A program made the position numbers and the translations under genes. Shown piece after piece: positions 11,717 to 31,412 of a DNA stretch of 64,000 nucleotides; position 1 is the stretch's first letter; each line of letters starts with the position of its first letter. The notes beneath the pieces are model-generated. The model was given only the letters and a program-made list of their open reading frames with translations. It had not been told where the DNA came from and made no database searches. Where the stretch lies: NCBI GenBank assembly GCA_947625085.1, contig CANQMV010000002.1:1490-65489 (forward strand), read 5' to 3'. Source of the stretch: an uncultured Bacilli bacterium (GTDB lineage: Bacteria; Bacillota_I; Bacilli_A; RF39; UBA660).

Positions 11717-11727
11717 AGTGCTTTTAT
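11696..11727 (+). terminator. Intrinsic terminator
   Basis: AAAGCACT..AGTGCTTT 8-bp stem followed by a T-run. Confidence 0.55.
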
Positions 11728-11739
11728 TATGGCGAAGAA

Positions 11740-12370: not shown

Positions 12371-12486
12371 ATGTCCTAAGCATGACATATAAAAGGCAAA
12401 TATACTCTAACGTGTCGAGATATAAATTCACGTTATGCAAAGATGAGCAAACATCGTTTAAAAAACATGCATAGGAAAGGGAAAAT

Positions 12487-13023: not shown

Positions 13024-13038
13024 AGGAGAGTGATATAA

Positions 13039-14396: not shown

Positions 14397-14409
14397 GAGA
14401 TGATAAGGT

Positions 14410-14814: not shown

Positions 14815-15203
14815 TGTTTCCGCATAAAATAACGATATTTAATATTACTAAAGAAAATGGCGTTGTTAAATATAACAGAAAAATAGTAAATGATGTCTTT
14901 TATTATACACAAAAAGCAATATCTGAAGAGGGAAAAGGAGATAAATATTCTTATTTATATCATGTTATATTTTCAAATGATGCTTTAAAGGATTATTTGG
15001 AAAATAGTCAATATTCAAAGTTAGAAGATAAAAATAAAAATTATACTTTGAAAGAAAAAGATATAATTGTTCTTAATGAATGTGAAGAGATAACAGATTT
15101 ATTAGATTTACAAAATTCTGATAAAAATTATTTTTTTATTAGGAAAATAAATGATAATCGTTATGGCAGTGATGATTTGCAAAATATAGAGGTAACTAAC
15201 TGA
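14814..15203 (+). CDS. Head closure / head-tail joining protein (putative)
   Basis: Position only. Confidence 0.4.
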   Translation: MFPHKITIFNITKENGVVKYNRKIVNDVFYYTQKAISEEGKGDKYSYLYHVIFSNDALKDYLENSQYSKLEDKNKNYTLKEKDIIVLNECEEITDLLDLQNSDKNYFFIRKINDNRYGSDDLQNIEVTN

Positions 15204-15697
15204 AAATTAAAGCTAAATTAAAATTACCTAATACTACTGAACTTATGGAAAGTGTAGGATTGGATAGTGGTGGAGAAGTGCAAAAATACATAGATAGTTT
15301 TGTACTTTATCATTGTGAACCTTATTTACCTGGTAGAAGACATCTTCATGAATCAGGTGTTAATGCTACTAAACTAGGAAGTGGTATGGTTATTTGGAAT
15401 TCTCCTGATGCTAATTATTTATATGAAGGAAAATTAATGGTTGACCCTATTACTAAAGTTGGTGCTTTTCCAATTAGAGGTGGAAAAATCTCTTTTAAAG
15501 AAAGTGATGGAGATATTGAAGTTTTTGTTAGTAGAAAAAATACTCAAAAAATCATGGACCCTAAAAATAGAGATTTACGATATTATGGTGGTAGTTTAAG
15601 AAGAGACCATTGGTTTGATAGAATGATAAATAATGAAATAGACGATTTAGTTAAAGGAGTTCAACAAAAGATAAACGGAGGTAAAAATGGAAGATAG
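15200..15697 (+). CDS. Neck/tail-attachment protein (HK97 gp10-like position); probable CTG start
   Basis: Frame is open from 15200. CTG overlaps the upstream stop (CTGA) and has SD AGAGGT 7 nt upstream. The first ATG is at 15245. Confidence 0.45.
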   Translation: MKIKAKLKLPNTTELMESVGLDSGGEVQKYIDSFVLYHCEPYLPGRRHLHESGVNATKLGSGMVIWNSPDANYLYEGKLMVDPITKVGAFPIRGGKISFKESDGDIEVFVSRKNTQKIMDPKNRDLRYYGGSLRRDHWFDRMINNEIDDLVKGVQQKINGGKNGR

Positions 15698-16148
15698 TAA
15701 AGCAATTATTGAATGTGTTAAAGATTATTTTAAAAGATGCCCGTATTTAGATAAACTGGCAGAAATAAATGTTGATTATTTGAATATGGATGCTAAAGAC
15801 CATGAGTATTGGTCTATTGAACCATTGGAAGTGCCTATTATACTAAAAAGAAATGTTTTAGGAACTATGACTGAACGGCAATGTCAATTTATATTAGCAA
15901 GTCGTTCTTTTTTTAATCCTCTGGTTGATACTCAAAATATTAAAAATTTACATTTGTTTGAAAAGATAGCAGAATGGCTTTATCAAAACAATAGAAAAAA
16001 AATATTTCCGACTTTAAATGAAGGGGAAATTGTTAAAAGTATTGAAGTTACAACAGGAGGATATTTATATGGCACTAATAATGATAATACAATTGCTAGA
16101 TATCAAATGCAATGTAAATTAGTTTATAAAAAGAAGGAGATGAAATAA
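15687..16148 (+). CDS. Tail completion protein (putative)
   Basis: Position before the major tail gene. Confidence 0.4.
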   Translation: MEDSKAIIECVKDYFKRCPYLDKLAEINVDYLNMDAKDHEYWSIEPLEVPIILKRNVLGTMTERQCQFILASRSFFNPLVDTQNIKNLHLFEKIAEWLYQNNRKKIFPTLNEGEIVKSIEVTTGGYLYGTNNDNTIARYQMQCKLVYKKKEMK

Positions 16149-16151
16149 GTT

Positions 16152-16694
16152 ATGGCTTTAACTTTATTAAAAGGTAAAAACGAATTTAATCGTGAAGACC
16201 ATATCACGATGTTTAATTCAAATATCGAAAAAATAGATGAAAATGGTATTGTTTATAATGAAGAAGATGCAACTTGGGTTCCATTTGGAGAAGATAATGA
16301 TGAGATTACAAGAGAAACTAATAATGAAACTGATGCTACCAAGAATGTATTAGGAAGAACAAAAGTAAAACATACACCAGGTCCGCAAACTACTGAAATT
16401 GACCCTATTGCAATCAAAGGCAATGATGCTTTGTCAACAATTCTTTATTATATGTTTAAATATAATTTAACTGGAGATAAGGCGAAACTTCAATGTATGG
16501 AAGTAACTTTAGCTGATGAGCAAGAAGATGGTAGTTATGGTGCATTTACTGAAACAGCTATTGTTAATTTGAATTCTTGGGGTGGAGATACTACTCAATT
16601 AAATAGTCCAATTACATTAAATTGGCTAGATGATAGAGTTCATGGAACTTATAAAACAGCAGATAATAAATTTACACCAACTGTCGCTGAATAA
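16152..16694 (+). CDS. Major tail protein
   Basis: 180 aa, followed by a strong terminator, then the chaperone pair and tape measure. Confidence 0.65.
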   Translation: MALTLLKGKNEFNREDHITMFNSNIEKIDENGIVYNEEDATWVPFGEDNDEITRETNNETDATKNVLGRTKVKHTPGPQTTEIDPIAIKGNDALSTILYYMFKYNLTGDKAKLQCMEVTLADEQEDGSYGAFTETAIVNLNSWGGDTTQLNSPITLNWLDDRVHGTYKTADNKFTPTVAE

Positions 16695-16700
16695 TTTTTT

Positions 16701-16732
16701 GGGGCTTATATAAAATAGCCCCTCATTTTTTT
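16701..16732 (+). terminator. Intrinsic terminator
   Basis: GGGGCT-loop-AGCCCC stem followed by a T-run. Confidence 0.7.
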
Positions 16733-16750
16733 ATAAAGGAAGGGAAAAAT

Positions 16751-17215
16751 ATGAGTTTAATAATAAAAAATAAATTTGTAAAGGAAGAATTAAAAGATGA
16801 AAATGGAAATGTATTAGGTTATTTACAATTTAATCCAAATGATTCAAGAATAATAAATAAATTGTCAAAAATTGTAAATGATTTAAGTAAAGATTTAAAA
16901 CAATTAAATAAAATTGGAGATTTTCCTAATTTATCAGATAAAAAATTAGAAAGCATAGAAGATTTTGAAAATGTAGCAAGTGAATTTGAAAAAATAAACG
17001 AAGCTTTAACAATAGAAGATAAAGCAATCGATAGTGTAATAAATGATTTATCAGAAGTTTTTGGAAGAGATACAATAGAACTATTTACAGGTGGAACTAA
17101 AGATATAATGACAATATTACCTTTGATTGAATTTATTATGCCTTATGTTAAAGAGGCAAGAGAAAAAAATATGAGTAAATATTTAAAAAATGGTAATAGT
17201 GATGTGATGGAATAA
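16751..17215 (+). CDS. Tail assembly chaperone (gpG-like position)
   Basis: Acidic 154-aa protein between the major tail and tape measure genes. Confidence 0.55.
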   Translation: MSLIIKNKFVKEELKDENGNVLGYLQFNPNDSRIINKLSKIVNDLSKDLKQLNKIGDFPNLSDKKLESIEDFENVASEFEKINEALTIEDKAIDSVINDLSEVFGRDTIELFTGGTKDIMTILPLIEFIMPYVKEAREKNMSKYLKNGNSDVME

Positions 17216-17799
17216 TGAATATTCTAACATCGGTGCTACCAAAAAAAATAAAAATAAAAAATAAAATTTATGATATTAATTATGATTATAGAACTATTAT
17301 TAATATTTTAATAGCCTTTGAAGATGTTAATTTAACAAATGTTGAAAAAATGTACATTTTGTTAAAAAACTTTTATAAAGAAGATATTCCAGAAGAAGAA
17401 ACTGAAGAGGCTATTGAAAAGGCAATAAAATTTATAGATTTAGGTAAAATCGATAATAATCAATCAAAGAAATCAAATGTTAGATTATATTCGTTTGAAA
17501 AAGATGGAAATTATATTTTTTCTGGAATTAATTCAACTCATAATATTGATATTGAAAAAGAAACAGATTTACATTGGTGGAAATTTATGCCTTATTTTAT
17601 GGATATGAATCCAGAATGTATGTTTGGAGAATTAACATACTATAGAACTCGTAAAGCTGAAGGTAAATTGACTAAAGATGAAAAGAAGAAATATGAACAA
17701 ATTAAAGATATAATCGAATTAGAAGACGTAAAAGTACAATCAGAAGCTAGAAAAAAATTCTTCGAAGAATATCATAAATCACAAAAAAATAAAAGGTAG
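17215..17799 (+). CDS. Second tail chaperone-position protein (own ATG)
   Basis: ORF track; lies in the -1 frame relative to the previous gene but has its own start. Confidence 0.5.
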   Translation: MNILTSVLPKKIKIKNKIYDINYDYRTIINILIAFEDVNLTNVEKMYILLKNFYKEDIPEEETEEAIEKAIKFIDLGKIDNNQSKKSNVRLYSFEKDGNYIFSGINSTHNIDIEKETDLHWWKFMPYFMDMNPECMFGELTYYRTRKAEGKLTKDEKKKYEQIKDIIELEDVKVQSEARKKFFEEYHKSQKNKR

Positions 17800-17807
17800 G
17801 TGATTTA

Positions 17808-20048
17808 CTGACTATAAAAAAAGGCGCTGTTGTTATAGATACTCAGTTAGATAATAGCAAAATTAAAGCAGATTTTAAAAATTTAGAAAAAGATACTCAA
17901 TCTTTAATAAATAAATACAATAAGTCTGTTGACAGTATAAAATCACAAGAATTAGCAATTGAAAAAGTTAAGCAAAGAATTTCTGATATACAAAGTGGTA
18001 ATGTTGTTCCAAGTAGTATGAAAGAATTAAATTCTCAACTTTTTCAAAATGATAAAGAATTACAAAAGGTTTTAGCAAGGATTAATGAATTATCTACAAA
18101 AAGAGTTACAACCACAGTAGAAGATGCAGAATTGCAAAAATTGGAACAAGCTAAAGTAGATTTAACTCAAATAATTTCTGAAATAAAAGAGGAAATTAAC
18201 ACAGCTAAATTAGCAAATCCTGAAATACAAGAATTAGCATCAAAATTAGAGTTAATGAATAGTAGGTTAAAACAAACCAAATCGGAAGCTAATCAAGTCA
18301 AAGACAAAATAATAGATGCATTTAATCAAAAAAGTGTAACTAACTTTGGTGGTTCTATAAATGAAATAGGAACTAAAATTGATAAATTTAAAAATAGAAT
18401 GACTAGATTAATAGGAACGGTTGCTATATTTAATTTATTAAGACAAGGTTTAACTTCTTTAAGAAATGGCTTTATTTCAACGTTAAAAACTGATGATGCT
18501 TTTAGCAATAGTTTAAATCAAATAAAAGCAAATTTAATGACAGCATTTATGCCTATTTATAATGCAATTTTGCCAGCAATTAATACCTTAATGAGTGCAT
18601 TGTCTAAATTGACAGGAACAATTGCAGTATTTATTGCTAATTTATTTGGCACTAAATTAGAAGATGCAAAAAAACAAGCCCAAGGATTATCTAATGCATT
18701 AGATAAAACTTCTAAAAGCGGAAAAAAAGCAAGTGGTTCTCTTGCTAGTTTTGATAATTTGGAAGTAATAAGCGATTCTTCTTATGATTCCGCTGGTTCC
18801 GGTGGCGGAAGTGGAATTGATTATAGTCAAGATATTGAATATAGTTCAAGACTATTAGAATTTTTAAACAAAATCAAAGATTTTGTTACTACCAACAAAG
18901 ATGGAATAATAGCATTTTTAGCAGGAGTTGCTGGCGGAATAGCCGCTATAAAACTTGGATGTGATGGATTTTTAGCATTAGGTATAGGATTAGTAATTGC
19001 TGGAATTGTAACTTTGGTACAAGGAATAATTGATTTTATGAAAGACCCAAGTTGGAATAATTTTGCAACAATTTTACAGGGTCTAGCATTAATACTAGCT
19101 GGTGTGGCAGTTGCAATGATTGCATTTAATGCAACAAATCCAGTTGGATGGATAATGCTTGCAATTGCAGCTATAACAGCATTGGTTGCTTTAATTATAA
19201 AAAATTGGGATAAAATATATGCTTGGTTATGTAAAATTGGTACATGGATATATGATAATGTGATTAAGCCTATTGGCGATTTTTTTGTTAATCTATTTAA
19301 TTCGATTGTAAACGGAATTAAAGAACGTTGGCAATTAGTAATATCTATATTATCGATTGTAGCAAATTGGATTTATTCAAATGTAATAAAGCCAGTAACT
19401 GATTTCTTTGTGAATTTATGGAATAATCTCAAAACTGGTGCTAAAAATGCCTGGGAGGGTATCAAGTCTGTTTTTAGTACAGTATCTTCATTTTTTAAAA
19501 ATATTTTTTCTAATGCTTGGGAAAGTGTAAAAAAAGTTTTTTCAACAGGTGGGAAAATATTTGATGGTATAAAAGATGGAATTGTAAATTCTTTCAAAAC
19601 TATTGTTAATGCAATAATTAGAGGAATTAATAAGGTAGTATCAATTCCATTTAAAGGAATAAATACGGCTTTATCTAAAATAAAAGGAATTGATATTTTG
19701 GGAATGAAACCATTTGGTTGGCTTTCAACAATTAAAGTACCACAGATACCTGAACTTGCAACTGGTACGGTTATTCCACCTCGACATAGATTTGCAGCCA
19801 TTTTAGGAGACCAAAGACATGGCACAAATATTGAAGCTCCACTTGATACAATTAGACAAGCGGATGAAGAAGCAATGGAAAAAGTTATGAATAAATATTT
19901 TGATAATTTGAATTCTCAAGAAAAAGAAATTGTATTTAGAAATATGACATTTATCCTTCAGTTTGGCAATGCAGAAGCTAAAAAGTGGATATTAGATATG
20001 ATGAGATTAAATGAAAAGGATATGGGTAAACCATTGCTATTAAATTAG
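17808..20048 (+). CDS. Tape measure protein; probable CTG start
   Basis: Helical N-terminus, a central Gly-rich and multi-TM segment, and large size. The frame is open from 17793 with no ATG/GTG/TTG before 18018. CTG 17808 follows SD AAAGGTAGGTGA. Confidence 0.8.
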   Translation: MTIKKGAVVIDTQLDNSKIKADFKNLEKDTQSLINKYNKSVDSIKSQELAIEKVKQRISDIQSGNVVPSSMKELNSQLFQNDKELQKVLARINELSTKRVTTTVEDAELQKLEQAKVDLTQIISEIKEEINTAKLANPEIQELASKLELMNSRLKQTKSEANQVKDKIIDAFNQKSVTNFGGSINEIGTKIDKFKNRMTRLIGTVAIFNLLRQGLTSLRNGFISTLKTDDAFSNSLNQIKANLMTAFMPIYNAILPAINTLMSALSKLTGTIAVFIANLFGTKLEDAKKQAQGLSNALDKTSKSGKKASGSLASFDNLEVISDSSYDSAGSGGGSGIDYSQDIEYSSRLLEFLNKIKDFVTTNKDGIIAFLAGVAGGIAAIKLGCDGFLALGIGLVIAGIVTLVQGIIDFMKDPSWNNFATILQGLALILAGVAVAMIAFNATNPVGWIMLAIAAITALVALIIKNWDKIYAWLCKIGTWIYDNVIKPIGDFFVNLFNSIVNGIKERWQLVISILSIVANWIYSNVIKPVTDFFVNLWNNLKTGAKNAWEGIKSVFSTVSSFFKNIFSNAWESVKKVFSTGGKIFDGIKDGIVNSFKTIVNAIIRGINKVVSIPFKGINTALSKIKGIDILGMKPFGWLSTIKVPQIPELATGTVIPPRHRFAAILGDQRHGTNIEAPLDTIRQADEEAMEKVMNKYFDNLNSQEKEIVFRNMTFILQFGNAEAKKWILDMMRLNEKDMGKPLLLN

Positions 20049-20059
20049 GAGGTGATGCA

Positions 20060-20485
20060 CTGAAACAAATAAGAATTAGTAATACGCAAAATGAAAATGA
20101 TTATTTTGATATTCCTTGGGAGTGGTTACCACGAGGAACCCAAGGGCCTACTTTAAATGATTTGGAATCTAGTGCTGAAAGAGGTAAGATGACAGGTGCA
20201 TTGGCAAGAGTAAGATGTGCTGAGGTTCCAGCAGCAACTTTAGATATTGATGAAAGATTAACTCAAAAAGAAATATATCCATTATTAAAATTATTAAAAA
20301 AAGTAGAAATAAATATTAATTATTTTGAAAAATACCTAAATAAATATATAACAATGAAATTTTATGCTAAAAAGCCTAATCCTCCAATTTGGAAAATCCC
20401 AGAAAATGATAATACAGATGATATTATTTATGATACTTTTACAATAGAATTCTCAGGATATGAAGGGATAAATGATAATGATTAA
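20060..20485 (+). CDS. Distal tail protein (Dit-position); probable CTG start
   Basis: Frame is open from 20057. CTG 20060 lies 4 nt after SD AGGAGGTGA. The track start is TTG 20162. Confidence 0.5.
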   Translation: MKQIRISNTQNENDYFDIPWEWLPRGTQGPTLNDLESSAERGKMTGALARVRCAEVPAATLDIDERLTQKEIYPLLKLLKKVEININYFEKYLNKYITMKFYAKKPNPPIWKIPENDNTDDIIYDTFTIEFSGYEGINDND

Positions 20486-22952
20486 AGATTTTGATAATAA
20501 AAAAATTCAAGAATTTGAATATAAAAAAAGTATAAACGTTGATGGTGAAATAATTGGAACTTGTGAATTAGGAACAGCAGAATTTCAAATATTAAATAAT
20601 ACCAACGAATATAATAATTTAAAAGGTCAATGGATAAAGACTATCCATGGCTCTTTTTATATTTATAATGTAGAACCAGTTCAAGAAAAAATTAATATAA
20701 AAATAAGTTGTTATGATATTAAATACAAATTAGATACTCCTTATGATAGCAATTTATATTCGTGGCCTATGAATATGAAAGAATGGAGAAATAAAATAGG
20801 TTTTAATTGTGGTGTAGTATTTGATGATTCTGATTTTCCTAATAGTGATTTAATTTTAGAAAATCAACCATATATCGGAGAAAAACCAAGTAATAGAAAT
20901 GTTATACAACAAATAGCAAAAGCAGGTTGTAGTTTTGTTGATAATGATGAAAATGATATCTTATATTTTAATTGGTTTGAAGATAAAATTTATAAAGTAG
21001 ATGATTGGATAGAATTGACAACAGAAAGTAAAAAAACAGAACCTATAAATGTGGTAGTTTTAGGTCGAGGAGACGTTGAGGATAATGTTTATTGGCCAGA
21101 AGATTTGCCAGAAAATAAAGTTGAATTTAGAATTGATAATAATTATATATTAGACCCTCAAGATACGGAAACAAATTATGATAGAAGATATGATGTTATA
21201 AAATCAATCTATAATAGAGTAAATGGATTTTCATATTTGATATTTAATATGAGAACTCAAAAATTGGAAAAAAGATTATCTTTAAAATTAGGTCAAAAAA
21301 TTTCATATTCAGATATATGGGGTAATACATTAGAAGCTTATGTTATGAGTAAAACAATTAAATATTTAGGTGGAGATTCTACTATTGAAAACAATTATGA
21401 GGTTATTATATCAGCTTCAGAAATTAAAGAAAATTCCAGTGAATTTTCATATGCCTCTAATGTTGAAAAAAGACTTTTATCAGTTTCAAGAAAAACCGAT
21501 AAAAATGGTGGCAAAATAGAGGATTTAGTAAAATCACAAGATGAACAGTCAAAGAGGATGGCTCAATTAGAAATTGATAACAAGAGTATTACAGAAACTG
21601 TTGAAAGTGTACAACAGGATATTAAGAATTTAGAAGATACATATACTTTTAGCACCGATTTAGATATTAGTAATTTAATAATACCATCAAATGAAAGATT
21701 ACCTATAGAAACAGGTGATTTTTTTATTAATTATTATTCGTATTTTAAAGGGAAACAAGTAACTCCAATCGTGAGTATCCCTTCAAAAATAGAAGGATTA
21801 GAGATTACTAGCAATGATTCTCAATTAAAAATATCTGTTAGTTCAGAAACTCCAATTGCTAATCTTAACAACGAAGTTGAAATTAACTTTTTATATACAG
21901 AAGATGATTATGTTTATTCCGCTATGAAAAAGGTTATGATTACATTGGCACCAAAAGGAGTAGATGGTAAAGATGGAGAACCAGGAATACAAGGTCCACC
22001 TGGTGAAGATGGAGAACAAACATATTTTTATGTTAAATATTCCAAAAATTCTACAGGAGAATCAATGACCGATATTCCGAATGAAGAAACTGAATATATG
22101 GGTGTTTCAAGTACAACAAGTTCAATAGCCCCAACAAGTCCTAGTGCATATACATGGTCAAAAATTAAAGGTGAAAATGGAAAAGATGGGGAAAATGGTC
22201 AAAATGGTACTCCTGGTAAAAATGGAGAAGATGGAAGAACATCATATTTACATATTAAATATTCTGATGATGGAGTAACTTTTACAGAAGCAGATGATAT
22301 TTATGGCGAAGGTGAAAGACCAAGTTCATGGCGAGGAGAATATGTTGATTTTACACCAGAAGATAGTATCGAATTTAGTGATTATGAATGGTATAAATTG
22401 ACCGAAAGCATTGATGATACATTAAATGATTTACAAAATCAAATAAATGATACTTCAACAAAATCAGACAACAATTATCAAGATTTAGTTAACCAATTAG
22501 GTGACTATGCCAAAGAAGAAAGCATTACAGAAATAAGAAATCAAGTAACACAATATCAAACTTCAACTGAATCTAATATAACAGTTTTAGAAGAAAGAAT
22601 TAGGGATGGAGTAAAAGAAATTACAACTGAAACTGGGTATACATTTGGAAAAGATGGCTTAAAAATTTCTAAAACTGGTGCTCCAACTGGGTTAACAATT
22701 GATGAAAGTGGCCAAGAAGTAGTCGATAAAACTGGTGCTTCAGAACAAACGTTACAATATAACGGTTATGTTGATGATTCTATTGCAACTAAAACCCCAT
22801 TTTTAGATAATTATAAAGGTCAGACAGTCAACTATTCTAAAAATTTAATTTTTGAACAGTATTTAGCATCTCAAAATTTTAGAATGGAAGAATTTCAAGA
22901 TAGTGAGCAAGGGATTTGTTTAGGATTTTTCTATACTGGAGGTGGTAAATAA
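20472..22952 (+). CDS. Tail-associated (Tal-position) structural protein with collagen-like repeats
   Basis: 826 aa after Dit. Two Gly-X-Y runs (GVDGKDGEPGIQGPPGEDGEQ and GENGKDGENGQNGTPGKNGEDGRT) plus a coiled coil. Confidence 0.7.
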   Translation: MIMIKDFDNKKIQEFEYKKSINVDGEIIGTCELGTAEFQILNNTNEYNNLKGQWIKTIHGSFYIYNVEPVQEKINIKISCYDIKYKLDTPYDSNLYSWPMNMKEWRNKIGFNCGVVFDDSDFPNSDLILENQPYIGEKPSNRNVIQQIAKAGCSFVDNDENDILYFNWFEDKIYKVDDWIELTTESKKTEPINVVVLGRGDVEDNVYWPEDLPENKVEFRIDNNYILDPQDTETNYDRRYDVIKSIYNRVNGFSYLIFNMRTQKLEKRLSLKLGQKISYSDIWGNTLEAYVMSKTIKYLGGDSTIENNYEVIISASEIKENSSEFSYASNVEKRLLSVSRKTDKNGGKIEDLVKSQDEQSKRMAQLEIDNKSITETVESVQQDIKNLEDTYTFSTDLDISNLIIPSNERLPIETGDFFINYYSYFKGKQVTPIVSIPSKIEGLEITSNDSQLKISVSSETPIANLNNEVEINFLYTEDDYVYSAMKKVMITLAPKGVDGKDGEPGIQGPPGEDGEQTYFYVKYSKNSTGESMTDIPNEETEYMGVSSTTSSIAPTSPSAYTWSKIKGENGKDGENGQNGTPGKNGEDGRTSYLHIKYSDDGVTFTEADDIYGEGERPSSWRGEYVDFTPEDSIEFSDYEWYKLTESIDDTLNDLQNQINDTSTKSDNNYQDLVNQLGDYAKEESITEIRNQVTQYQTSTESNITVLEERIRDGVKEITTETGYTFGKDGLKISKTGAPTGLTIDESGQEVVDKTGASEQTLQYNGYVDDSIATKTPFLDNYKGQTVNYSKNLIFEQYLASQNFRMEEFQDSEQGICLGFFYTGGGK

Positions 22953-24346
22953 TGTCACTTTTAAAAGGAACAATAGTTGGTGGTAATGCCAAATATGTTA
23001 ATTATTATCTAGAATATACATTAAATTCACAAAATATTGCCTCTAATACTTCTAATATTACATTGCATATGTATGCACAAGCAACGTCTACTTCTGTTGG
23101 AACTTACAATACTTCTGGTTGTCCAGTAAAGATTTATTATACAAAAAATGGCGTTACAACTAATGTTGTAAATAGAAATCAAGGAATTGATTTTAGAAAT
23201 AAAAAAGTTGTTGATATGGGTAGTTGGACCGGTAATATTGAACATAATTCTGATGGTACATTAACAATTGGTATTGGAGGAAGTTTTTCAGGCACTGGTT
23301 CTTCATGGGTTACATCTGGTACAGTTAGTGGTAACTGGACATTAACAACAATTCCTAGAGCAAGTTCATTTACAGTTTCCAATCCAATTATCGGAGAGAC
23401 AGCAACAATTTCTATAAATAGAGCTAGTAGTGGTTTTACGCATACTTTATCATATTCATTTGGAACTTTAAGTGGTACAATTGCTAGCAATGTAGGTAGT
23501 AGTTGTAATTGGGCAATTCCTACTTCTTTTTATAATCAAATTCCAACATCTACTAGTGGCAATTGTACTATAACTTGTGTTACTTATAGTGGTTCTACTG
23601 AAATTGGTAGAAGTTCTAAAGTAGTTACAATCACATGTAATAAATCTGATTGCATACCAACGTTAAGTGTGACAGTTGTTGATGTTAATTCTAAAACAAC
23701 ATCTTTAACAGGAAATAGTTCAAAATTAGTTAGACATGTTTCTACAGCAAGGATTACTCCAAAGGCAACAGGCAAAAATGGTGCTAGCATTGCTAAAATA
23801 ACAGTTGGTGGAACAACAATAAGTTCATATTTAGATATACCTAACATAAACGAAGATTCTTTTATAGTTACAGCAATAGATAGCCGTGGATATTCAAACA
23901 CAACAATTATATATTTAACTTCATCGATGATTGATTATGTTCTATTAACCTGTAATGCTATTTTTAAAAGAACAACTCAAACAGGTGGAACAGTTCAATT
24001 AGAATATTCAGGTAATTATTTTAATGGAAGTTTTGGTGGAACAAGTAACACTTTAACACTTAAATGGTCTTATAGAGTTAAAGGAAGTTCAAGTTGGATA
24101 ACAGGTGGTAATTTATCACCAACAAAAAGCGGAAATACATATAGCGGCAAAATTACTTGTGGTTCAAATTTTAATTATCAAACAGATTATGAATTTATAA
24201 TTTATTATAGTGATAAATTAAATGACTTAGATACTAAAGCAATACCTCTTTATAAAAGTGTATCTCCATTTGCTATTTGTCAAAATGGGATTTTGCTAAA
24301 TGGTGTATTTTTAGGAGTAGAAATTGTAGATGAATGGGAGGAATAA
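22952..24346 (+). CDS. Tail fibre / receptor-binding protein (S/T/G-rich)
   Basis: 464 aa, beta-rich and low in charge. Position after Tal. Confidence 0.55.
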   Translation: MSLLKGTIVGGNAKYVNYYLEYTLNSQNIASNTSNITLHMYAQATSTSVGTYNTSGCPVKIYYTKNGVTTNVVNRNQGIDFRNKKVVDMGSWTGNIEHNSDGTLTIGIGGSFSGTGSSWVTSGTVSGNWTLTTIPRASSFTVSNPIIGETATISINRASSGFTHTLSYSFGTLSGTIASNVGSSCNWAIPTSFYNQIPTSTSGNCTITCVTYSGSTEIGRSSKVVTITCNKSDCIPTLSVTVVDVNSKTTSLTGNSSKLVRHVSTARITPKATGKNGASIAKITVGGTTISSYLDIPNINEDSFIVTAIDSRGYSNTTIIYLTSSMIDYVLLTCNAIFKRTTQTGGTVQLEYSGNYFNGSFGGTSNTLTLKWSYRVKGSSSWITGGNLSPTKSGNTYSGKITCGSNFNYQTDYEFIIYYSDKLNDLDTKAIPLYKSVSPFAICQNGILLNGVFLGVEIVDEWEE

Positions 24347-24371
24347 AAAATGTATAAAATTACAAAAACTA

Positions 24372-24399
24372 TTGACACAATAAACAGTTGTGCTACGAT
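24372..24399 (+). promoter_or_regulatory. Promoter-like element
   Basis: TTGACA (24372-77), 16-nt spacer ending in TGc, then TACGAT (24394-99). The predicted TSS falls at the start of the ACAT repeat. Confidence 0.35.
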
Positions 24400-24444
<45 letters not shown>

Positions 24445-24512
24445 AGTGCTTACGCACAAAAACAAATTACAAAAACTCCGAAAGGAGGATTTTAGGGGCA
24501 TAGGTGATTTAA

Positions 24513-24875
24513 TTGGCTGAAGTTAAATCATTTAAATTTAAAAATACTTATTTAGATTTATCAGGCATAAATGCAAAGGGAATTATAAAAATTGTTGATT
24601 CAGCCTTAACTATTCCTACTCCAACAAGGGCAGGACAAGGTGGATATATTAATCAAGTAGTAACGATACCATCAGGTTATACATCTATTTCGGCTATTTT
24701 TGAAAGTTCATCAATAAGTGATTCCTCTGGTCTTCAGTTAACACCAATTTATGGCTTTTTAAATAAAACCGGTTCAACTACTGTTTGGGTTCAATATTAT
24801 TCGCCGAATATAATTAATAATGCCGATGCATTAAGAATAAAACTTATTTGTATAAAAAGCAGTCTATTAAGTTAA
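24513..24875 (+). CDS. Small beta-rich tail-fibre-associated protein (TTG start)
   Basis: ORF track. SD AGGTGA. N-terminal KSFKFKN motif is shared with the next ORF. Confidence 0.5.
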   Translation: MAEVKSFKFKNTYLDLSGINAKGIIKIVDSALTIPTPTRAGQGGYINQVVTIPSGYTSISAIFESSSISDSSGLQLTPIYGFLNKTGSTTVWVQYYSPNIINNADALRIKLICIKSSLLS

Positions 24876-24897
24876 TAATTGTCCTTAATAAAAAGAT

Positions 24898-25287
24898 ATG
24901 AAAAGCATAAAATTTAAAAATAATATGTTTTTTGATGGAGAAATATGTGACATTGGGTCAAATGCAAATAATACTTATGTAAAATGGGCTAATGGATTGA
25001 TGATATGTTTTAGAATAACTGAAGAAAATTCAGCATCATATCAGTTTAAATGGGGAGAGCATTATGTATTTAAAATACCATATGCTTATGATTTTCCAGA
25101 AAAGTTTATAGAACCACCTTTTTTGATGTATGATATATTACCAACATCAAATTATGGTTGTTATAAAATAGGATATGCTTCACCAACCGTTACAGCTAAT
25201 AGTATTTCAGATTTATATGTCGCAAGAACGGATGCTTCATCATACACATATAAAATTTGGTTTCTAGCTATTGGTTATTGGAAATAA
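24898..25287 (+). CDS. Small beta-rich tail-fibre-associated protein (paralogous N-terminus KSIKFKNN)
   Basis: ORF track. Confidence 0.5.
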   Translation: MKSIKFKNNMFFDGEICDIGSNANNTYVKWANGLMICFRITEENSASYQFKWGEHYVFKIPYAYDFPEKFIEPPFLMYDILPTSNYGCYKIGYASPTVTANSISDLYVARTDASSYTYKIWFLAIGYWK

Positions 25288-25308
25288 ATAGGAAAGGTAG
25301 GTAATAAA

Positions 25309-25608
25309 TTGGAAAAATTTATGAAAAAATTAAAAAAATACTGGGGGTGGACAACTTTAACGGTAACTATATTAGCAGCCATTTTTGGTTGCTTTTTTAA
25401 AGTATTTAAATATTTTGATGAACAAAATGAAGAAATGGCTGAAACTCAAAAAATAGCTCAACAAGCTTTAATTTGGAATAAAGAAATCCCGACAGTTCAA
25501 AGAGCAGAAGTATGTGATATTTATTTGTCAAAAGGATTTGATAGTTACACAAAAAAGTTGTGTGAAAATGTAATTTTAGCAGATGAAAGTTTAAAAGTAG
25601 AAAGGTAG
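25309..25608 (+). CDS. Single-TM membrane protein (lysis-cassette position)
   Basis: ORF track. TM segment WTTLTVTILAAIFGCFF. Confidence 0.45.
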   Translation: MEKFMKKLKKYWGWTTLTVTILAAIFGCFFKVFKYFDEQNEEMAETQKIAQQALIWNKEIPTVQRAEVCDIYLSKGFDSYTKKLCENVILADESLKVER

Positions 25609-25617
25609 GAGACATAT

Positions 25618-25878
25618 ATGGAAATAACATTTGAATTAATATTTTCTGTTGTAACAGCAGTATTAACCGCATTATTAGGTACATTCTTTAAAGATAGAGT
25701 AGTACCAGCAAGATTTATTCCAATTCAAAATATCATAATTGGATTAATTGCAGCATTTGTTGCTGTATATTATGGCTTATTTAATGATGTAGCAACAGCA
25801 ATAATCATATCATTAGCATTATCACTTGGGGTTGGTGGTGCGTATGATGCTTTAAAAACTAAAAAAGAGGAGAAATAG
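25618..25878 (+). CDS. Holin
   Basis: 86 aa with 2-3 TM helices and a charged C-terminus (KTKKEEK). Lies immediately upstream of the endolysin. Confidence 0.75.
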   Translation: MEITFELIFSVVTAVLTALLGTFFKDRVVPARFIPIQNIIIGLIAAFVAVYYGLFNDVATAIIISLALSLGVGGAYDALKTKKEEK

Positions 25879-25881
25879 TAT

Positions 25882-26625
25882 ATGAGTAAATATGTTCAAG
25901 ATAATGAATGGGGTACTAAGTATCCAAATTTTAGAAAGGAAGAATTTAAGTGTCCATGCTGTGGTTCATATGGAAATGGTATAGCTACAACTTTACTAGA
26001 TACTTTACAAGAATTAAGAACGAGAACAGGTAAAGCTATAAATATTTCAAGTGGTTACAGATGTTCAAAATTCAATAAAAAAGTAGGTGGAGCTGTTAAT
26101 TCAGCACATATGAAAGGTTCAGCCGCTGATTTTTATTTTGCAGATGGAAGTTTAGGTAATCAAAATACAAGAATATCCTTAGTAAATGAATTAAAAAAAA
26201 CTAAATATTATCATTGGTGTTATTGTAATGTAAATGGAAATTATCCAAACATGGGAGCAGCAATTCATTTTGATAGCCAATTAATAGATTCAACATCTTC
26301 AAGCAGAGAAGAAAGAGTTAAATCACTTCAAAGAGCGTTAAATGCCGACTACAAATGCGGATTAGTTGTCGATGGTTCATTTGGTCCTTTAACAGAGAAT
26401 GCAAGTCATAACAATTATTTATATTATCTAAAAAAAGGAGCTACTAACCATATTAAGTGGCTACAAACTAGATTAATTGAATTAGGTTATTCTGTAGGTA
26501 GTAGTGGAGTAGATGGTTCGTTTGGACCTGATACTTTAGCAGCAGTTAAGAAGTTCCAAAAAGATAAAGGACTTATAATTGATGGAAATGTTGGAAAGGC
26601 AACTCATAAAGAATTAATTAAATAG
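25882..26625 (+). CDS. Endolysin: peptidase M15A-type domain plus two PG_binding_1 repeats
   Basis: N-terminus FRKEEFKCPCCG..SGYRC..NSAHMKGSAADF has the M15 zinc motifs. C-terminus carries a duplicated LQ..L..G....DG.FGP.T motif. Confidence 0.85.
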   Translation: MSKYVQDNEWGTKYPNFRKEEFKCPCCGSYGNGIATTLLDTLQELRTRTGKAINISSGYRCSKFNKKVGGAVNSAHMKGSAADFYFADGSLGNQNTRISLVNELKKTKYYHWCYCNVNGNYPNMGAAIHFDSQLIDSTSSSREERVKSLQRALNADYKCGLVVDGSFGPLTENASHNNYLYYLKKGATNHIKWLQTRLIELGYSVGSSGVDGSFGPDTLAAVKKFQKDKGLIIDGNVGKATHKELIK

Positions 26626-26684
26626 TATAATTTATTGTTATTGGTATTATATTAGTAGTGATATAGTTAAATTTTGAAAAATAG

Positions 26685-26714
26685 TTGACAAAACATAAAA
26701 AAATATGATAATAT
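26685..26714 (+). promoter_or_regulatory. Promoter-like element driving a ~230-nt leader
   Basis: TTGACA 26685-90, about 17 nt, then TGATAATAT. Confidence 0.4.
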
Positions 26715-26919
26715 TTAGGTACTTGATTGAGTTAAACGACTTAATTGTTATTTTGTGCTCTTTTAAGCAATATAGTATTTATGCAATATATTAACTATAT
26801 TTATGAATGAATAGGGTGTAAATTTTCTTCTTGCACTAACGCTTATTTTTTAATAAGTTTGAGTAACTTTTAAAGTGAAAGTATACATGTAGGACTGGGA
26901 GACTACTTCATTCATATTG

Positions 26920-26950
26920 CCCACACAATATAGTGTGGGTTATTTTTTGG
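26920..26950 (+). terminator. Intrinsic terminator at the end of the leader
   Basis: CCCACAC-AATATA-GTGTGGG followed by TTATTTTTT. Confidence 0.65.
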
Positions 26951-26958
26951 GGTATTTT

Positions 26959-27345
26959 ATGACAAAAAATAGATTTGTGAAAGAAGTTGGGTATATAACA
27001 CAAGATGTTGTAGATAAATATGGTTTGTATGAATACAATAAAAAACCAATCGTACGTTCATTAGATTTATATGCACACATCGAAAAGCATAAGGAAGATT
27101 TTCAAAGTAAGGAAAGTTTTTATTATTCTGTTGATAATATTGATTTAATAATACAAAATCCTGATTTTGTTTATTATGAAAAAGATAGAAATAGTTTATT
27201 ATATTTAAAAAAATTATATGAAAATATTTGTGTTGTTGTAAAATTGAAATTGAGAGATAATAAAAATTCGTACGTTGCTTCTATATATCCAATAAGTGAA
27301 TATAAAATCCAAAAACTTATAGAAAAAAGTTATATAAAAAATTAA
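26959..27345 (+). CDS. PBECR-like (phage Barnase-EndoU-ColicinE5/D-RelE-like) nuclease-domain protein, putative
   Basis: Pattern ..HIEKHKEDF..IDLIIQNPDFVYYEKDRNSLLYLKKL..VVVKLKL..NSYVASIYPI.. resembles that family. ATG 26959 is chosen because the 26917 extension is the terminator hairpin. Confidence 0.4.
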   Translation: MTKNRFVKEVGYITQDVVDKYGLYEYNKKPIVRSLDLYAHIEKHKEDFQSKESFYYSVDNIDLIIQNPDFVYYEKDRNSLLYLKKLYENICVVVKLKLRDNKNSYVASIYPISEYKIQKLIEKSYIKN

Positions 27346-27348
27346 AAT

Positions 27349-27385
27349 AGGTAGGTATGTTTAATCGCATATCTACCTTTTTTTA
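27349..27385. terminator. Bidirectional terminator between convergent genes
   Basis: AGGTAGGTATG..CATATCTACCT 11-bp stem followed by T7. Confidence 0.65.
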
Positions 27386-27387
27386 AT

Positions 27388-27885
27388 TTATAGAAAATTT
27401 CTTTTAAATATTTCTCTAAACTCTTCTTTAGTTTTATGATAATATTGCATGAATCTTTGCTGACCTAATTTATGCCAATAGTCGTTAAAAGATTTATCTT
27501 CTTGCCATCTTTCATGGCATTTCCAACACATCCTAAGGCATAATCCATATTTCATAGAATTAGCTCTATTTTTACCTCTAAAAATTTCATGCCAAGTTAA
27601 ATCAGTTGTATTATCGCAAAACATACATTCATCTTTATTATCAGAAAATAAACTAAACCTATTTTTTTCTAATTTAGCAAGTTTATTTGATTTAGATTTT
27701 ATTTTTTTGTCAATCATTGTATTTTTTGTTGTTTTATTTTGCTGATTTGCACAATTTTTAGGATTTATTGTGCATTTATATTCTTTATATTTACAATTCT
27801 TACAATCATTTAAGGTTATCATTTTATTATTTAATTTGCACTCTAGTTTATGGTTTAATTTTTGCTTTAAATATTTACAATTCAT
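27388..27885 (-). CDS. Cys-rich zinc-binding / HNH-like protein at the prophage end
   Basis: ATG 27885 has SD GGAGGA. Multiple CxxC pairs and a C-terminal CMFC..WHEIFRGKNR..CWKCH motif. Confidence 0.4.
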   Translation of the reverse strand: MNCKYLKQKLNHKLECKLNNKMITLNDCKNCKYKEYKCTINPKNCANQQNKTTKNTMIDKKIKSKSNKLAKLEKNRFSLFSDNKDECMFCDNTTDLTWHEIFRGKNRANSMKYGLCLRMCWKCHERWQEDKSFNDYWHKLGQQRFMQYYHKTKEEFREIFKRNFL

Positions 27886-27914
27886 AGTATCCTCCACGAA
27901 TATCGTGAAGGTGC

Positions 27915-28112
27915 CTATTCCTCAGTTCCAATATCAGTTAATAAAGCTTTTCCTCGATTATCAGGCATTGTATATCTTTGATTTAAATATCTAAAAGCGG
28001 CAGCTAATTCCCCATTGGAACCACCATATTGAGTAACTAGCATTTTAGCTATTCTTAAATCTTTTTTCTTAATATTTACAGGATACTGTAATCTTTTTTC
28101 ATATTTCCACAT
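27915..28112 (-). pseudogene. cotJC: cotJC (spore-coat Mn-catalase family), N-terminal 65 codons only; interrupted by the prophage
   Basis: MWKYEKRLQYPVNIK..QYGGSNGELAAAFRYLNQRYTMP..LLTDIGTEE matches the CotJC N-terminus up to the conserved TDIGTEE(FAHLE). A TAG follows at the phage junction. Confidence 0.8.
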
Positions 28113-28113: not shown

Positions 28114-28590
28114 CTACATCTCCCATGGCCACTTATCTTGTTCCCAACTAAATGGAACTTTTGTCATGTCATTACTATCTACATTCAAAGGACCATATCT
28201 CCTTTCATAATTTTTAACAAGTTCAACTGCCATTTTTCGATACTTATTAAATAAATTTAAAGCTTCCATATCATTTGGAAAATTATCTAAATACAAATTC
28301 AATTCATGAGCAGCAAAAGAAATTTGACCAATATTTAATAGCATTTCTTCTTTCTCACTTTTTACATTAATTCTAGCTGGTTGATAATTTTTATAAGCGT
28401 TATATAAATTTTTAAATAAATTACCTCTTATATAACCTTCATATGGTTGATATAAAGATAATTTATTATTATTACTTGATTCATTATAATTTAAAAGTCC
28501 AAGTGGTGAATCATCATCATTATTATTCATACCTTGATTTCCTTTAAAATTAGTAAAATAATCAATTTCATCAAACATACTATAGTTCAT
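28114..28590 (-). CDS. cotJB: Spore coat protein CotJB
   Basis: ..FAAHELNLYLDNFPND.EAL..Y......YERRYGPL......PWPWE are CotJB hallmarks. Adjacent to cotJC. Confidence 0.8.
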   Translation of the reverse strand: MNYSMFDEIDYFTNFKGNQGMNNNDDDSPLGLLNYNESSNNNKLSLYQPYEGYIRGNLFKNLYNAYKNYQPARINVKSEKEEMLLNIGQISFAAHELNLYLDNFPNDMEALNLFNKYRKMAVELVKNYERRYGPLNVDSNDMTKVPFSWEQDKWPWEM

Positions 28591-28652: not shown

Positions 28653-28973
28653 TTAAAAGATTTTTATATCTTTTATATCATCAATCTTAATAATTTCATT
28701 ATCCATAGTAATTATATGATTATTAACAACCCCAGCAATTTGACAACTTCTTTCTTTATCATCCGTAACAATTTCTACTTTGGTATTAAAAATATAACTA
28801 TTTTGGTTAATTAATTCTTTAATTTTTTCTCTAACAGTTAAATTATTATAATTTTGATTTTCAATTTTTGGATTAGGATGTTCTAAATCATCTTTTAAAC
28901 TATCAAATACTTCTTTATTATTACCACTTTTTTTCGAAAGTTGATTTTGATATATTTTAGGTAACTTTTTCAA
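28653..28973 (-). CDS. Hypothetical protein in the cotJA position (no CotJA motif seen)
   Basis: ORF track; lies upstream of cotJB on the same strand. Confidence 0.4.
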   Translation of the reverse strand: MKKLPKIYQNQLSKKSGNNKEVFDSLKDDLEHPNPKIENQNYNNLTVREKIKELINQNSYIFNTKVEIVTDDKERSCQIAGVVNNHIITMDNEIIKIDDIKDIKIF

Positions 28974-29038
28974 AATATCACTCCCATATAATAATATGTT
29001 ATTTGTATAGATTTATTAATTTTTTTCATAATAATAAT

Positions 29039-30157
29039 ATGAAAACAAATAAAATAACTTTAAATATTGTATTTTCGATTATTATTTTTATAATTGTTAG
29101 TATATTGTCAATTTATACAACTAAAGTTTTTTTAAAGGGAAGTTTAGATAATCTTTATTTAAAACAATTATTATTTTATGTTATAGGTAGTATTTTAACA
29201 ATTTTTATTACTTATAAAGGTTTTTCGCTTTTTAAAACTTATCATTATTTAATTTATATAGGTATTAATGTTTTACTATTAGGTCTTTTAATGTTTGGAA
29301 TTAGTGTTAATGGAAGTAAATGTTGGTTTTTAGTTGGACCAATTAGTTTTCAACCTAGTGAACTTATGAAAATAAGTCTAATTATTACTTTAGCAGAAGT
29401 AATTTCTAAATATAAGGATAAAAAACATTTAAAAAGAATGAAAGATGAATTTTTTTTACTGTTAAAACTTTTTATAATAACGCTTATTCCTAGTATTTTA
29501 ACCTTTTTAGAGCCTGATACAGGAGTAGTTATAATTTATTTTTTAATTTTATTTGTCATGATTTTTTTTACAGGAATTAGTAAAAAATGGTATTTAATCT
29601 TTTCTTTAATGGTGGTTTTTATAGGAGCAACTTTAACTTATTTATATATATTTCAAGAAAATTTCTTTTTATCATTAGTTGGCAATAGTATTTTTTATCG
29701 AATGGAGCGAATTTTTAACTGGGCTAGTAGTAATGGTTATCAACTAGAAAATAGTTTAATTGCAATTGGAGCAAGTGGGTTAACTGGTTTTGGATTTAAT
29801 CAAAATCCGGTTTATTTTCCAGAACCGCAAACGGATTTTATTTTTACAACTTATACAGCAAACTTTGGCTTTTTAGGCGCTTTGTTTTTAATTTTCGTTA
29901 TTCTTATTTTTGATACTTCCATTTTAAGACTTTCTTTAAAAAAAATTAAATTAGATGATAAATATATAATTTTAGGAATCTTTATCATGCTTTTTTATGG
30001 GCAACTTCAAAATATTAGTATGACAATTGGACTTTTACCAATTACCGGAATTCCGCTTCCATTTATTAGTTATGGAGGTTCTAGTTTAATTTCTTATATG
30101 TTTATTATAGGAATAATTTTAAATATTAATCGGGAAAGGTTAAAATATCGTAATTGA
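29039..30157 (+). CDS. SEDS-family peptidoglycan polymerase (RodA/FtsW/SpoVE)
   Basis: About 10 TM helices. Motif GSKCWF..GPISFQPSELMKI. C-terminal PFISYGGSS. Start is 29039 (ATG) or 29003 (TTG). Confidence 0.8.
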   Translation: MKTNKITLNIVFSIIIFIIVSILSIYTTKVFLKGSLDNLYLKQLLFYVIGSILTIFITYKGFSLFKTYHYLIYIGINVLLLGLLMFGISVNGSKCWFLVGPISFQPSELMKISLIITLAEVISKYKDKKHLKRMKDEFFLLLKLFIITLIPSILTFLEPDTGVVIIYFLILFVMIFFTGISKKWYLIFSLMVVFIGATLTYLYIFQENFFLSLVGNSIFYRMERIFNWASSNGYQLENSLIAIGASGLTGFGFNQNPVYFPEPQTDFIFTTYTANFGFLGALFLIFVILIFDTSILRLSLKKIKLDDKYIILGIFIMLFYGQLQNISMTIGLLPITGIPLPFISYGGSSLISYMFIIGIILNINRERLKYRN

Positions 30158-30212
30158 GAAGATAATAGGCTAAATTTTTCTTTTTTAGCATAAACTTATT
30201 ATAGGTGATTTA

Positions 30213-31412
30213 ATGCAAAAAGTAGTTATTAATGCAAGTTTAGGAGGAAATATTGAAGGTGGGGTTAATGCTAATTTAGTTGAAAAAGATTTTAATTTAG
30301 AAATATCTAAGTTAATTTATGATAAACTTCGAAGTCTTGGAGTTGATGCGTATTTAGTAAGAGATGATGATAGTACGTTAAGTGATGAAGAAAGACTTTC
30401 AATAATTAATCAATATTTAAATGGAGACTCTGGAATTGTTTTAACTAATAAACTAGCAAGTGGCTTGGATTCTGGAGCCGAAGTTATTTATGCTTTAAAA
30501 GATGCTGATACCTTAGCTATGCAAATTAGTAATAGTATTGAATCTCTTGGTCAAAATATTTTAAAATTTTATCAATTACGAGACCCTAATAATACCGCTT
30601 TAGATTTTTATTCAATTATTAGAGAAGTTCCTGAAAAGGTTGAAAGTCTTATTGTTAGTTATGGTTATTTAGATTCTTCAAAAGATATTGATTTTCTGCA
30701 AACTAAAAAAGAAGAATTAGCAACTAATATTGCTCTTACTATTTATGATTATTTAAATAAAAATAATATTTATGTAGTTAAAGAGGGTGATAGTTTATAT
30801 ACTATTGCTCGTAAATATGAAACAACTGTAGCTAAATTAAAAGAACTTAATAATTTGGTAACTAATAATTTAGCAGTTGGTCAAGAATTAATAATTCCAA
30901 GTAATAAGCAAAATGGTTTGAATTTGTCCGAGCAAGACTTTTTAATTTATACTGTTAAACCAGGAGATACGTTATATACAATTGCAAGAGCAAATAATAC
31001 TACAATAGATGTTTTAAAAGAAATTAATAATTTAGAAAGCGATAATTTAAATTTAGGAGAAATATTAAAAATTCCAACGAAAATTACGAATGAAGATATG
31101 GAAAATTATCAAATATATGTTGTCAAACCTTTAGATAATTTATATGATATTGCGAAAAGATTTAATGTTAGCGTTCTTGAAATTAAAAATTTAAATGGGT
31201 TAAGCAGTGATAATTTAACAATTGGTGAAGTTTTAAAAATTCCAAATCAAAGTAATAAGTCTAATTATTTTAATTATGTAGTTAAAAAGGGTGATAATTT
31301 ATATAAAATTGCTAATTTATATCAAACTACTGTTTCAGAACTTAAAAATTTAAATAATTTAGAAAATAATGATTTAACAGTTGGTAAAGTTTTGAAAGTT
31401 CCCAAAGTTTAA
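30213..31412 (+). CDS. Amidase_3-like domain (zinc ligands substituted) plus four LysM repeats
   Basis: The N-terminus aligns to the MurNAc-L-Ala amidase fold, but GHGG is SLGG and SIHxN is VLTNK. Four Y.V..GD.LY.IA......L..LN repeats follow. Confidence 0.65.
   Translation: MQKVVINASLGGNIEGGVNANLVEKDFNLEISKLIYDKLRSLGVDAYLVRDDDSTLSDEERLSIINQYLNGDSGIVLTNKLASGLDSGAEVIYALKDADTLAMQISNSIESLGQNILKFYQLRDPNNTALDFYSIIREVPEKVESLIVSYGYLDSSKDIDFLQTKKEELATNIALTIYDYLNKNNIYVVKEGDSLYTIARKYETTVAKLKELNNLVTNNLAVGQELIIPSNKQNGLNLSEQDFLIYTVKPGDTLYTIARANNTTIDVLKEINNLESDNLNLGEILKIPTKITNEDMENYQIYVVKPLDNLYDIAKRFNVSVLEIKNLNGLSSDNLTIGEVLKIPNQSNKSNYFNYVVKKGDNLYKIANLYQTTVSELKNLNNLENNDLTVGKVLKVPKV

Follow-up and report, generated by a model that had tools for sequence, protein, structure and literature searches.

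A prophage interrupts cotJC at a recurrently used glutamate codon in an uncultured gut Bacilli bacterium

RESULTS

Insertion of a prophage in cotJC

In the 64-kb stretch of DNA analysed here (the window), a prophage lies inside the sporulation gene cotJC and breaks its reading frame at the GAA codon of Glu65 (TEE|LAH). A sequence-only reading of this DNA had proposed such an insertion; comparison with related elements, many of which interrupt the same codon, bears it out and finds the site to be both precise and recurrent. We consider it likely that a temperate tailed phage integrated site-specifically at Glu65 and that it can be excised so as to rebuild the gene. The host side of the junction comprises the following features.

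27915..28112, minus strand: cotJC 5' fragment, codons 1-65 and a phage-derived stop (Pfam, tblastn, alignment)
27918..27920, minus strand: GAA codon of Glu65, common to attB, attL and attR (junction alignments, attP dyads; see below)
28114..28590, minus strand: intact cotJB (PF12652, E 5.5e-25; orthologues at 57-77% identity in related genomes)
28653..28973, minus strand: conserved ORF in the cotJA position (60-74% identical ORFs upstream of cotJB in L088-L096)
29003..31412, plus strand: RodA/FtsW/SpoVE-family gene and an amidase gene with LysM domains, on the host side of the junction (syntenic with related genomes)

The cotJC ORF begins with an ATG at 28112 on the minus strand and runs for 65 codons to a C terminus reading ...ALLTDIGTEE; the GAA of Glu65 (27920..27918) is followed directly by a TAG stop (27917..27915). 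Both the ORF reading and the profile match agree with the earlier assignment of these codons to cotJC and with their ending in the TAG: residues 1-65 correspond to positions 1-66 of the 284 positions of Pfam Mn_catalase (PF05067, E 1.8e-20), at a score of 73.6 bits that exceeds the gathering cut-off of 27. Solved Mn catalases align to the same residues, with the alignment ending exactly at ...EE, and the 65-residue fragment is 78-94% identical to CotJC homologues, the 65 codons being 94% identical, by hand count, to the intact homologue P0141. From published Mn-catalase structures, we take Glu65 to be the Glu of the E-x-x-H manganese-binding motif. Intact CotJC homologues read LAH[LV]EM after TEE, so that the family does continue past the break point, as had been claimed.

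The cotJC start lies 1 nt from the cotJB stop, directly downstream of that gene, and the same cotJB-cotJC order with an intact cotJC occurs in L088 to L097. The statement that cotJB and the gene upstream of it are intact also holds, given the PF12652 match and the conservation of the ORF at 28653..28973; for this ORF, a profile search returned no CotJA family match and one weak CotO match under the cut-off. The RodA/FtsW/SpoVE-family and amidase genes run divergent from cotJ. In B. subtilis, cotJC is expressed in the mother cell. A tblastn search of the 64-kb window with full-length CotJC recovered no further CotJC fragment and no second intact cotJC; such a copy, together with a lack of detectable excision, had been named beforehand as refuting the reading as an intervening element. 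An independent 861-bp ENA contig (L001, sample ERZ27249481) matches at 100% identity from cotJB through the 5' part of cotJC and across the phage junction, so that it includes the 65 cotJC codons and reaches 89 nt into the foreign DNA; thus, the junction is not an artefact of a single assembly.

The prophage left of the junction

The DNA left of 27917 had been called prophage, and the identification of terminase, portal, head, capsid, tape measure, holin and endolysin genes substantiates this.

1..27917, plus strand: right-hand ~28 kb of the prophage (ORF strands, PHROG and Pfam assignments)
5996..6407, plus strand: three phage tRNA genes, Ile-TAT, Gln-TTG and Leu-CAG (ARAGORN)
6650-7123, plus strand: terminase small subunit (terminase pair: phrog_309 at 5e-49; phrog_10250, phrog_3717)
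7101-8453, plus strand: terminase large subunit (same terminase pair assignments)
8408-9907, plus strand: portal (phrog_533 at 3e-93)
9907-11544, plus strand: minor head protein (phrog_581 at 7e-76)
12487-13023, plus strand: scaffold (phrog_2303)
13039-14001, plus strand: major capsid protein (phrog_10 at 2.5e-46)
18018-20048, plus strand: tape measure protein (phrog_1535 at 6e-66)
20472-22952 and 22952-24346, plus strand: distal tail / host-range proteins (tail and adsorption PHROGs)
25618-25878, plus strand: holin (phrog_1299)
25882-26625, plus strand: endolysin with Peptidase_M15 and PG_binding_1 domains (PF08291, PF01471)
26917..27345, plus strand: PBECR3-family predicted nuclease or toxin-like accessory gene (PF18812 at 2e-15)
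27349..27378, no strand: hairpin then T-run, between the convergent PBECR3 gene and junction ORF
27388..27885, minus strand: first phage gene after the junction, 165 aa, CxxC-rich (phrog_7566 at 1.7e-16)
27892..27917, minus strand: phage-side half-site (P' arm) TAGGCACCTTCACGATATTCGTGGAG, the first three bases of which are the TAG stop (weight matrix)

Early genes occupy 1-6400 and late genes 6650-26625, and the long prophage ORFs all lie on the plus strand, save the final gene at 27388..27885. Judged by its gene content, with packaging, head, tail and lysis modules all present, the prophage looks complete and fully lytic-competent. A homologue of the PBECR3 gene is found at the equivalent position in the L008 phage. 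The hairpin at 27349..27378, the sole terminator-like site in 27200-29100, is probably a bidirectional terminator. Between two tail genes (24280-24520), a short tandem repeat encodes (YVCM)n or, read from the opposite strand, (HTYI)n and is probably non-coding low-complexity DNA.

Neither an integrase or recombinase nor a repressor is visible within the window, which thus starts inside the prophage; the left-end lysogeny module would lie left of position 1. Searches for close relatives of this DNA gave little: 25 kb of prophage DNA had no megablast match among 50,697 deposited phage records, an exact-protein look-up of the two leftmost window ORFs returned none either, and the leftmost ORF has no useful relatives in genome or viral contigs and one weak, unrelated match in metagenome contigs.

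Glu65 as a recurrent insertion site

The genomes nearest to the window are uncultured Bacilli from rabbit and other gut metagenomes, with CotJB proteins 57-77% identical. The comparison with uninterrupted relatives, proposed earlier as a check, found cotJC intact (~186 aa) in eight of the ten nearest loci, in the same cotJA-cotJB-cotJC context, and the site in these intact alleles reads ...GGN ACN GAR GAA CTN GCT CAT.... The remaining two loci are cut off by the end of the contig, in one case exactly at codon 65. In this last case, a contig of a related metagenome-assembled genome (L092:10467-10662, ending ...GAGGAAT), the contig end suggests the assembly break expected for a population polymorphic for a prophage at Glu65.

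Among the 120 best homologue clusters, 88 leave CotJC sequence directly after DIGTEE, several of them on contigs of 100-900 kb, and many of their ORFs are exactly 68-72 aa long. The search with the N-terminal fragment returned only short proteins, an apparent ranking or prefilter bias, and the one with the C-terminal part mostly intact proteins of 185-192 aa; hence, the frequency of split cotJC is not estimable from these searches. An identical layout at the junction, made up of cotJB, a 68-72-aa cotJC 5' piece and a phage lysis module on the opposite strand, is shared by loci with different host flanks (L002 with L003, L006, and L169 to L178). Read from these assemblies, dozens of unrelated prophages split cotJC at the Glu65 codon. 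Two of the cotJC-integrated prophages carry a reverse transcriptase gene (RVT_1) beside a Phage_tail_APC gene (L002:12409-13473, L006:12423-13484), a pair that looks like a diversity-generating retroelement acting on the tail protein.

The window block at 28114-31462, which runs from cotJC and cotJB through the ORF in the cotJA position to the rodA-family and amidase-LysM genes, is itself conserved in relatives. Compared with most related genomes (L089 and L096 were compared), it stands in the reverse orientation to the genes from 31462 onward, and in L096 the amidase gene alone is relocated. The gene order would agree with an inversion of the entire block, cotJC included. Because the nearest genomes differ in how genes are ordered around cotJ, synteny cannot place the cotJC 3' part.

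The other prophage end in relatives

Full-length CotJC, searched against IMG/VR, gave 80 loci, almost all with a 5'-truncated cotJC at a prophage edge; in seven of them the fragment starts at residue ~62-66. In relatives, the prophage end next to the cotJC 3' part encodes a large serine recombinase (LSR) of 513-719 aa that combines Resolvase, Recombinase and Zn_ribbon_recom domains; 13-50 bp separate the end of its gene from a cotJC 3' ORF that starts (L)AH[LV]E. In L011, L046 and L081, for instance, the LSR (516-718 aa) is encoded on the strand of the cotJC 3' ORF and stops 13-31 bp short of it, and in L085 the LSR homologue ends 46 bp before the cotJC fragment (tblastn). Over the whole viral scan, a serine recombinase homologue ends no more than ~150 nt upstream of the cotJC fragment in 48 of the 80 loci, and a tyrosine integrase was seen next to the fragment in none of the 80.

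A 118-aa C-terminal fragment (P0332) occurs on four contigs (L165 to L168) that have identical host flanks and two different prophages. Their recombinases, of 513 and 719 aa and with the same three domains, end 40 bp before the fragment and are encoded in a lysogeny operon behind a CI-like repressor. Two different phages thus occupy one Glu65 site within one host species.

The att sites and the fit of the window

When intact genes (attB), 5' junctions and 3' junctions are aligned, only GAA is common to all (GAG in one case). The comparison of both junctions that had been suggested for finding the att core therefore yields GAA, from the junctions of relatives and the right junction of the window. 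The phage arms of the family carry GATAAC on one side and GTTATC on the opposite side, each at a distance of ~20 nt, and a pattern scan recovered attP sites in free-phage contigs as near-perfect dyads centred on the GA of GAA. In L216, attP reads TGATAACATCTATGTGCAAGC-GAA-TTGGCACATAGATGTTATCA, a near-perfect dyad with the symmetry expected for a serine integrase. From these alignments and dyads, crossover would take place at the GAA of 27918..27920, the attP dyad being centred on its GA.

One phage yielded the complete set of three sites. Its attP lies at the start of a 44-kb contig (L219), its attL at the end of the same contig (L232, where the recombinase and the 3' part of cotJC also lie), and its attR in L123, which comes from another sample and is identical to L219 over 1637 nt. 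The common core of the three is GAATTAGGTCAT, and the host arms of L232 and L123, when joined, give DIGTEELGHLEMVG, in frame. The ~75 nt of L219:1-75 are the same as those preceding the attL core at L232:14280-14374 (IMGVR_UViG_3300006143_000032); with this stretch repeated at both contig ends, the assembly holds the circular attP junction plus the integrated form, which suggests that the phage was excising in that sample. The arrangement of skin and SPbeta, to which the window had been likened, is thereby found in relatives with its recombinase, its 3' gene part and its in-frame rejoining; for the window prophage, the left end is extrapolated from them.

The window was compared with this family through a weight matrix derived from 33 other P' arms of the cotJC site. 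Its own P' arm (27892..27917) scores 16.9 bits, close to the family median of 17.4, and no other 26-mer among the 127,948 in the window, both strands included, reaches this score. It has the geometry of the family (GA, 4 nt, GCAC, 4 nt, then a TAT-containing motif), with GATATTC as a variant of the consensus GTTATC. A search by pattern for the P arm predicted to pair with it gave 0 matches. With its GAA boundary and its phage half-site, the window junction by this comparison fits the LSR att family at Glu65.

The junction ORF

Phage DNA had been said to begin within ~17 nt of the cotJC stop, with the first phage gene starting at 27885-97. A GTG start at 27897 lies 17 nt past the stop; more likely, the gene starts at the ATG at 27885, which is 29 nt past the stop and behind a GGAGG. 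It is read in the same direction as cotJ. Its 165-aa product shows the motifs CxxC...H...N...CxxCH, and the homologue in L007 has sub-threshold matches to DUF968 (1.6e-5) and HNHc_6, so that, from its motifs, the product resembles DUF968 / HNH-type proteins. A single-sequence AlphaFold model (pLDDT 46) was too poor to read the fold, and tblastn against the 50,697 phage records returned no match.

An unrelated phage (L169 to L178) also has a phrog_7566-type gene at this junction, 11 nt behind the stop. In other phages, the family is found in the early region, 5-9 kb from att, and in L007 a 410-aa tyrosine integrase lies directly upstream of the homologue (47% identity) across the presumed attP. 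A role as recombination directionality factor was considered and not adopted: the L007 homologue sits beside a tyrosine integrase, homologues elsewhere are 5-9 kb away from att, and the only family hints are DUF968 and HNHc_6.

No terminator was found between the truncated cotJC and the junction ORF, which shares the direction of cotJ; in the lysogen, the ORF is therefore readable only from host transcription. It is nonetheless doubtful that the host's sporulation-specific cotJ promoter would be captured and drive the ORF in the lysogen. After excision, the ORF would come to lie downstream of the integrase gene across attP. If promoter capture were true, the onset of sporulation would activate a function of the phage within the mother cell, for example excision control or a nuclease.

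Other insertion sites in cotJC

A second and more heavily used site lies near residue 28 (TQ|YGG), as in L012-L024, L013:8545-10537 and many of L008-L083. There, a serine recombinase of ~479 aa ends 11-100 bp before a cotJC remainder starting YGGPDGE. A third recurrent site, again in a Glu codon, falls near residue 137 within EDMAAE|QKARA (P0149, P0194; L118, L150-L152, L160, L163); it has its own conserved phage arm (...GNACGA...TAAGAACAAC), and on long contigs two 142-aa products both end in ...EDMAAEETITFT. Some cotJC genes are split in three by two prophages at once (L159:3836-5460, L151:8548-10400, L155), for example at the residue-28 site together with either the Glu65 site or the residue-137 site, and a middle piece of ~38-110 codons is left.

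In L008:7518-10486 (on the contig of L138), the right end of the phage is related to that of the window, with endolysin, PBECR3-like gene and junction-ORF homologue; it borders the 3' remainder of cotJC at the residue-28 site and is oriented the other way round with respect to cotJC. One phage end module is thus found with another insertion site and another orientation.

DISCUSSION

A mechanism for the insertion and its alternatives

In the mechanism that we propose, the host, an uncultured low-GC gut member of the Bacilli, would have undergone site-specific recombination into cotJC of its cotJ operon, with the crossover falling within the GAA codon of Glu65. Integration would leave codons 1-65 by the lysis end of the phage, whose DNA would provide the stop, and would place codons 66 to ~186 at the left prophage end, beyond the window. 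The enzyme, we infer, would most likely be a phage-encoded LSR at that left end; this is less than certain for the window prophage, as modules are mosaic and L007, a phage with a related right end, carries a tyrosine integrase beside the junction-ORF homologue. Precise excision, by the recombinase and a directionality factor, would rejoin GAA to CTN-GCN-CAT and give an intact cotJC. By analogy with known elements, it is possible that excision takes place in the sporulating mother cell. Within the window, no directionality factor was identified, and upstream of cotJ no trustworthy sigma-E/sigma-K promoter was found, promoter calls being unreliable at ~25% GC.

A developmental role is not needed to account for the insertion. 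It is quite possible, if somewhat short of an even chance, that a conserved and dispensable cotJC merely offers phages a safe landing site, with excision only on induction; such a lysogen would sporulate with cotJC interrupted, possibly by means of paralogues. Different recombinase families use three different conserved motifs of cotJC, which is what targeting governed by conservation alone would predict, and some genomes hold two prophages in one cotJC (L159, L151). In C. difficile, mutants of the cotJC-like genes cotCB and cotD have no major coat defect, and paralogues are common (PMC11222575, PMC13492147). It also speaks for this view that neither a sporulation promoter nor a directionality factor was found here and that the prophage looks fully capable of lytic growth. 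On the other hand, both gene halves remain open and conserved across many lineages (in a sampling biased to conserved pieces), and skin, SPbeta, vfbin, vrin and gin, which share the architecture, excise in the mother cell (PMC4191935, PMC5595907). The data fit the use of cotJC as a safe landing site and as a developmental switch equally well.

It is unlikely that the window phage integrates by a tyrosine recombinase acting in the same region of cotJC on a short identical core. L007, the closest relative of the junction ORF, does have its 410-aa tyrosine integrase beside the ORF homologue, and PhiS63 uses a 10-nt core in sigK, the class of its recombinase being unstated in the part of that report available (PMC3442830). 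However, the window junction shares only GAA with attB, its phage arm has the dyad half-site geometry of att sites beside serine recombinases, and the fragment is accompanied by a serine recombinase in 48 of the 80 loci of the viral scan and by a tyrosine integrase in none.

A gene that is beyond rebuilding, left by a deletion or rearrangement beside the prophage in which the cotJC 3' part was lost or moved, is very improbable. The 3' fragment is indeed absent from the 64-kb window, and the inversion of the cotJ block against the nearest genomes does attest to a local rearrangement in the lineage. Yet the break falls exactly at the core codon of the family and is followed by a phage arm of the family type, and an illegitimate deletion would not give both; cotJB, the upstream ORF and the 65 codons (94% identical to P0141) are undamaged, and the turning of the entire block, cotJC with it, accounts for the inversion. 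An assembly chimera of host and phage reads is hardly credible: the relatives are metagenome assemblies and the window possibly comes from a metagenome-assembled genome too, but the identical junction is present in the independent contig L001 and the same type of junction at the same codon in dozens of other assemblies.

Relation to known elements

Site-specific integration by an excisable phage, the reading preferred here, has a close parallel in SPbeta, which splits spsM in B. subtilis and is served by the recombinase SprA and the directionality factor SprB; in both cases, a complete, inducible-looking prophage divides a spore-envelope gene of the mother cell. As with SPbeta, an LSR at one end abuts a gene half in the window's relatives and precise excision rebuilds the ORF (PMC4191935, PMC5499854). 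The two differ in target (spsM versus cotJC), in host lineage and in phage, and, unlike SPbeta, the window presented neither an SprB-like factor nor a mother-cell promoter.

The skin elements in sigK (with SpoIVCA in B. subtilis and with CD1231 and the directionality factor CD1234 in C. difficile) are, as in the relatives, serine-recombinase elements in a sporulation gene. For the recombinase behind a CI-like repressor in L165 to L168, a directionality factor would be the timing device, as in C. difficile (PMC5025042). Skin is, however, a defective remnant in a regulatory gene essential for sporulation, whereas the window has a complete-looking phage in a coat gene, structural or enzymatic, that the host can probably do without. 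PhiS63 of Clostridium perfringens is, in the available part of its description, a functional, inducible siphovirus in a sporulation gene; it differs from the window in its target, sigK, and in its 10-nt identical core (PMC3442830).

Insertions in cotJC have been noted before. It is a frequent target of phage and transposon insertion (Abe et al. 2013, as cited in part of bioRxiv 10.1101/2021.11.22.469490), and in Laceyella sacchari it is interrupted by a skin-like element, according to the available text of bioRxiv 10.1101/2022.02.25.481979. In the accessible portions of these two preprints, the reports are brief genome-survey remarks without insertion codon, att structure or site multiplicity (10.1101/2021.11.22.469490, 10.1101/2022.02.25.481979). 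In C. difficile R20291, the gene of a CotJC-like Mn catalase, CDR20291_1465, adjoins prophage phi027 (PMC11222575). This prophage may be another phage integration in or beside a cotJC paralogue.

The window is a clean cotJC case in an uncultured gut lineage and confirms a known design rather than revealing a new mechanism. Mobile elements that act as developmental switches have a classic example in prophages that divide sporulation genes and are excised in the mother cell. To our knowledge, only a handful have been characterised experimentally, namely those in sigK, spsM, spoVFB, spoVR, gerE and yabG. The comparative data make cotJC a heavily used landing pad with at least three separate sites, of which the Glu65 site has a well-defined dyad att, and these sites are ready-made natural attB/attP pairs for serine integrases. 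They also raise the question whether lysogeny alters the spore-coat catalase content of gut spore-formers.
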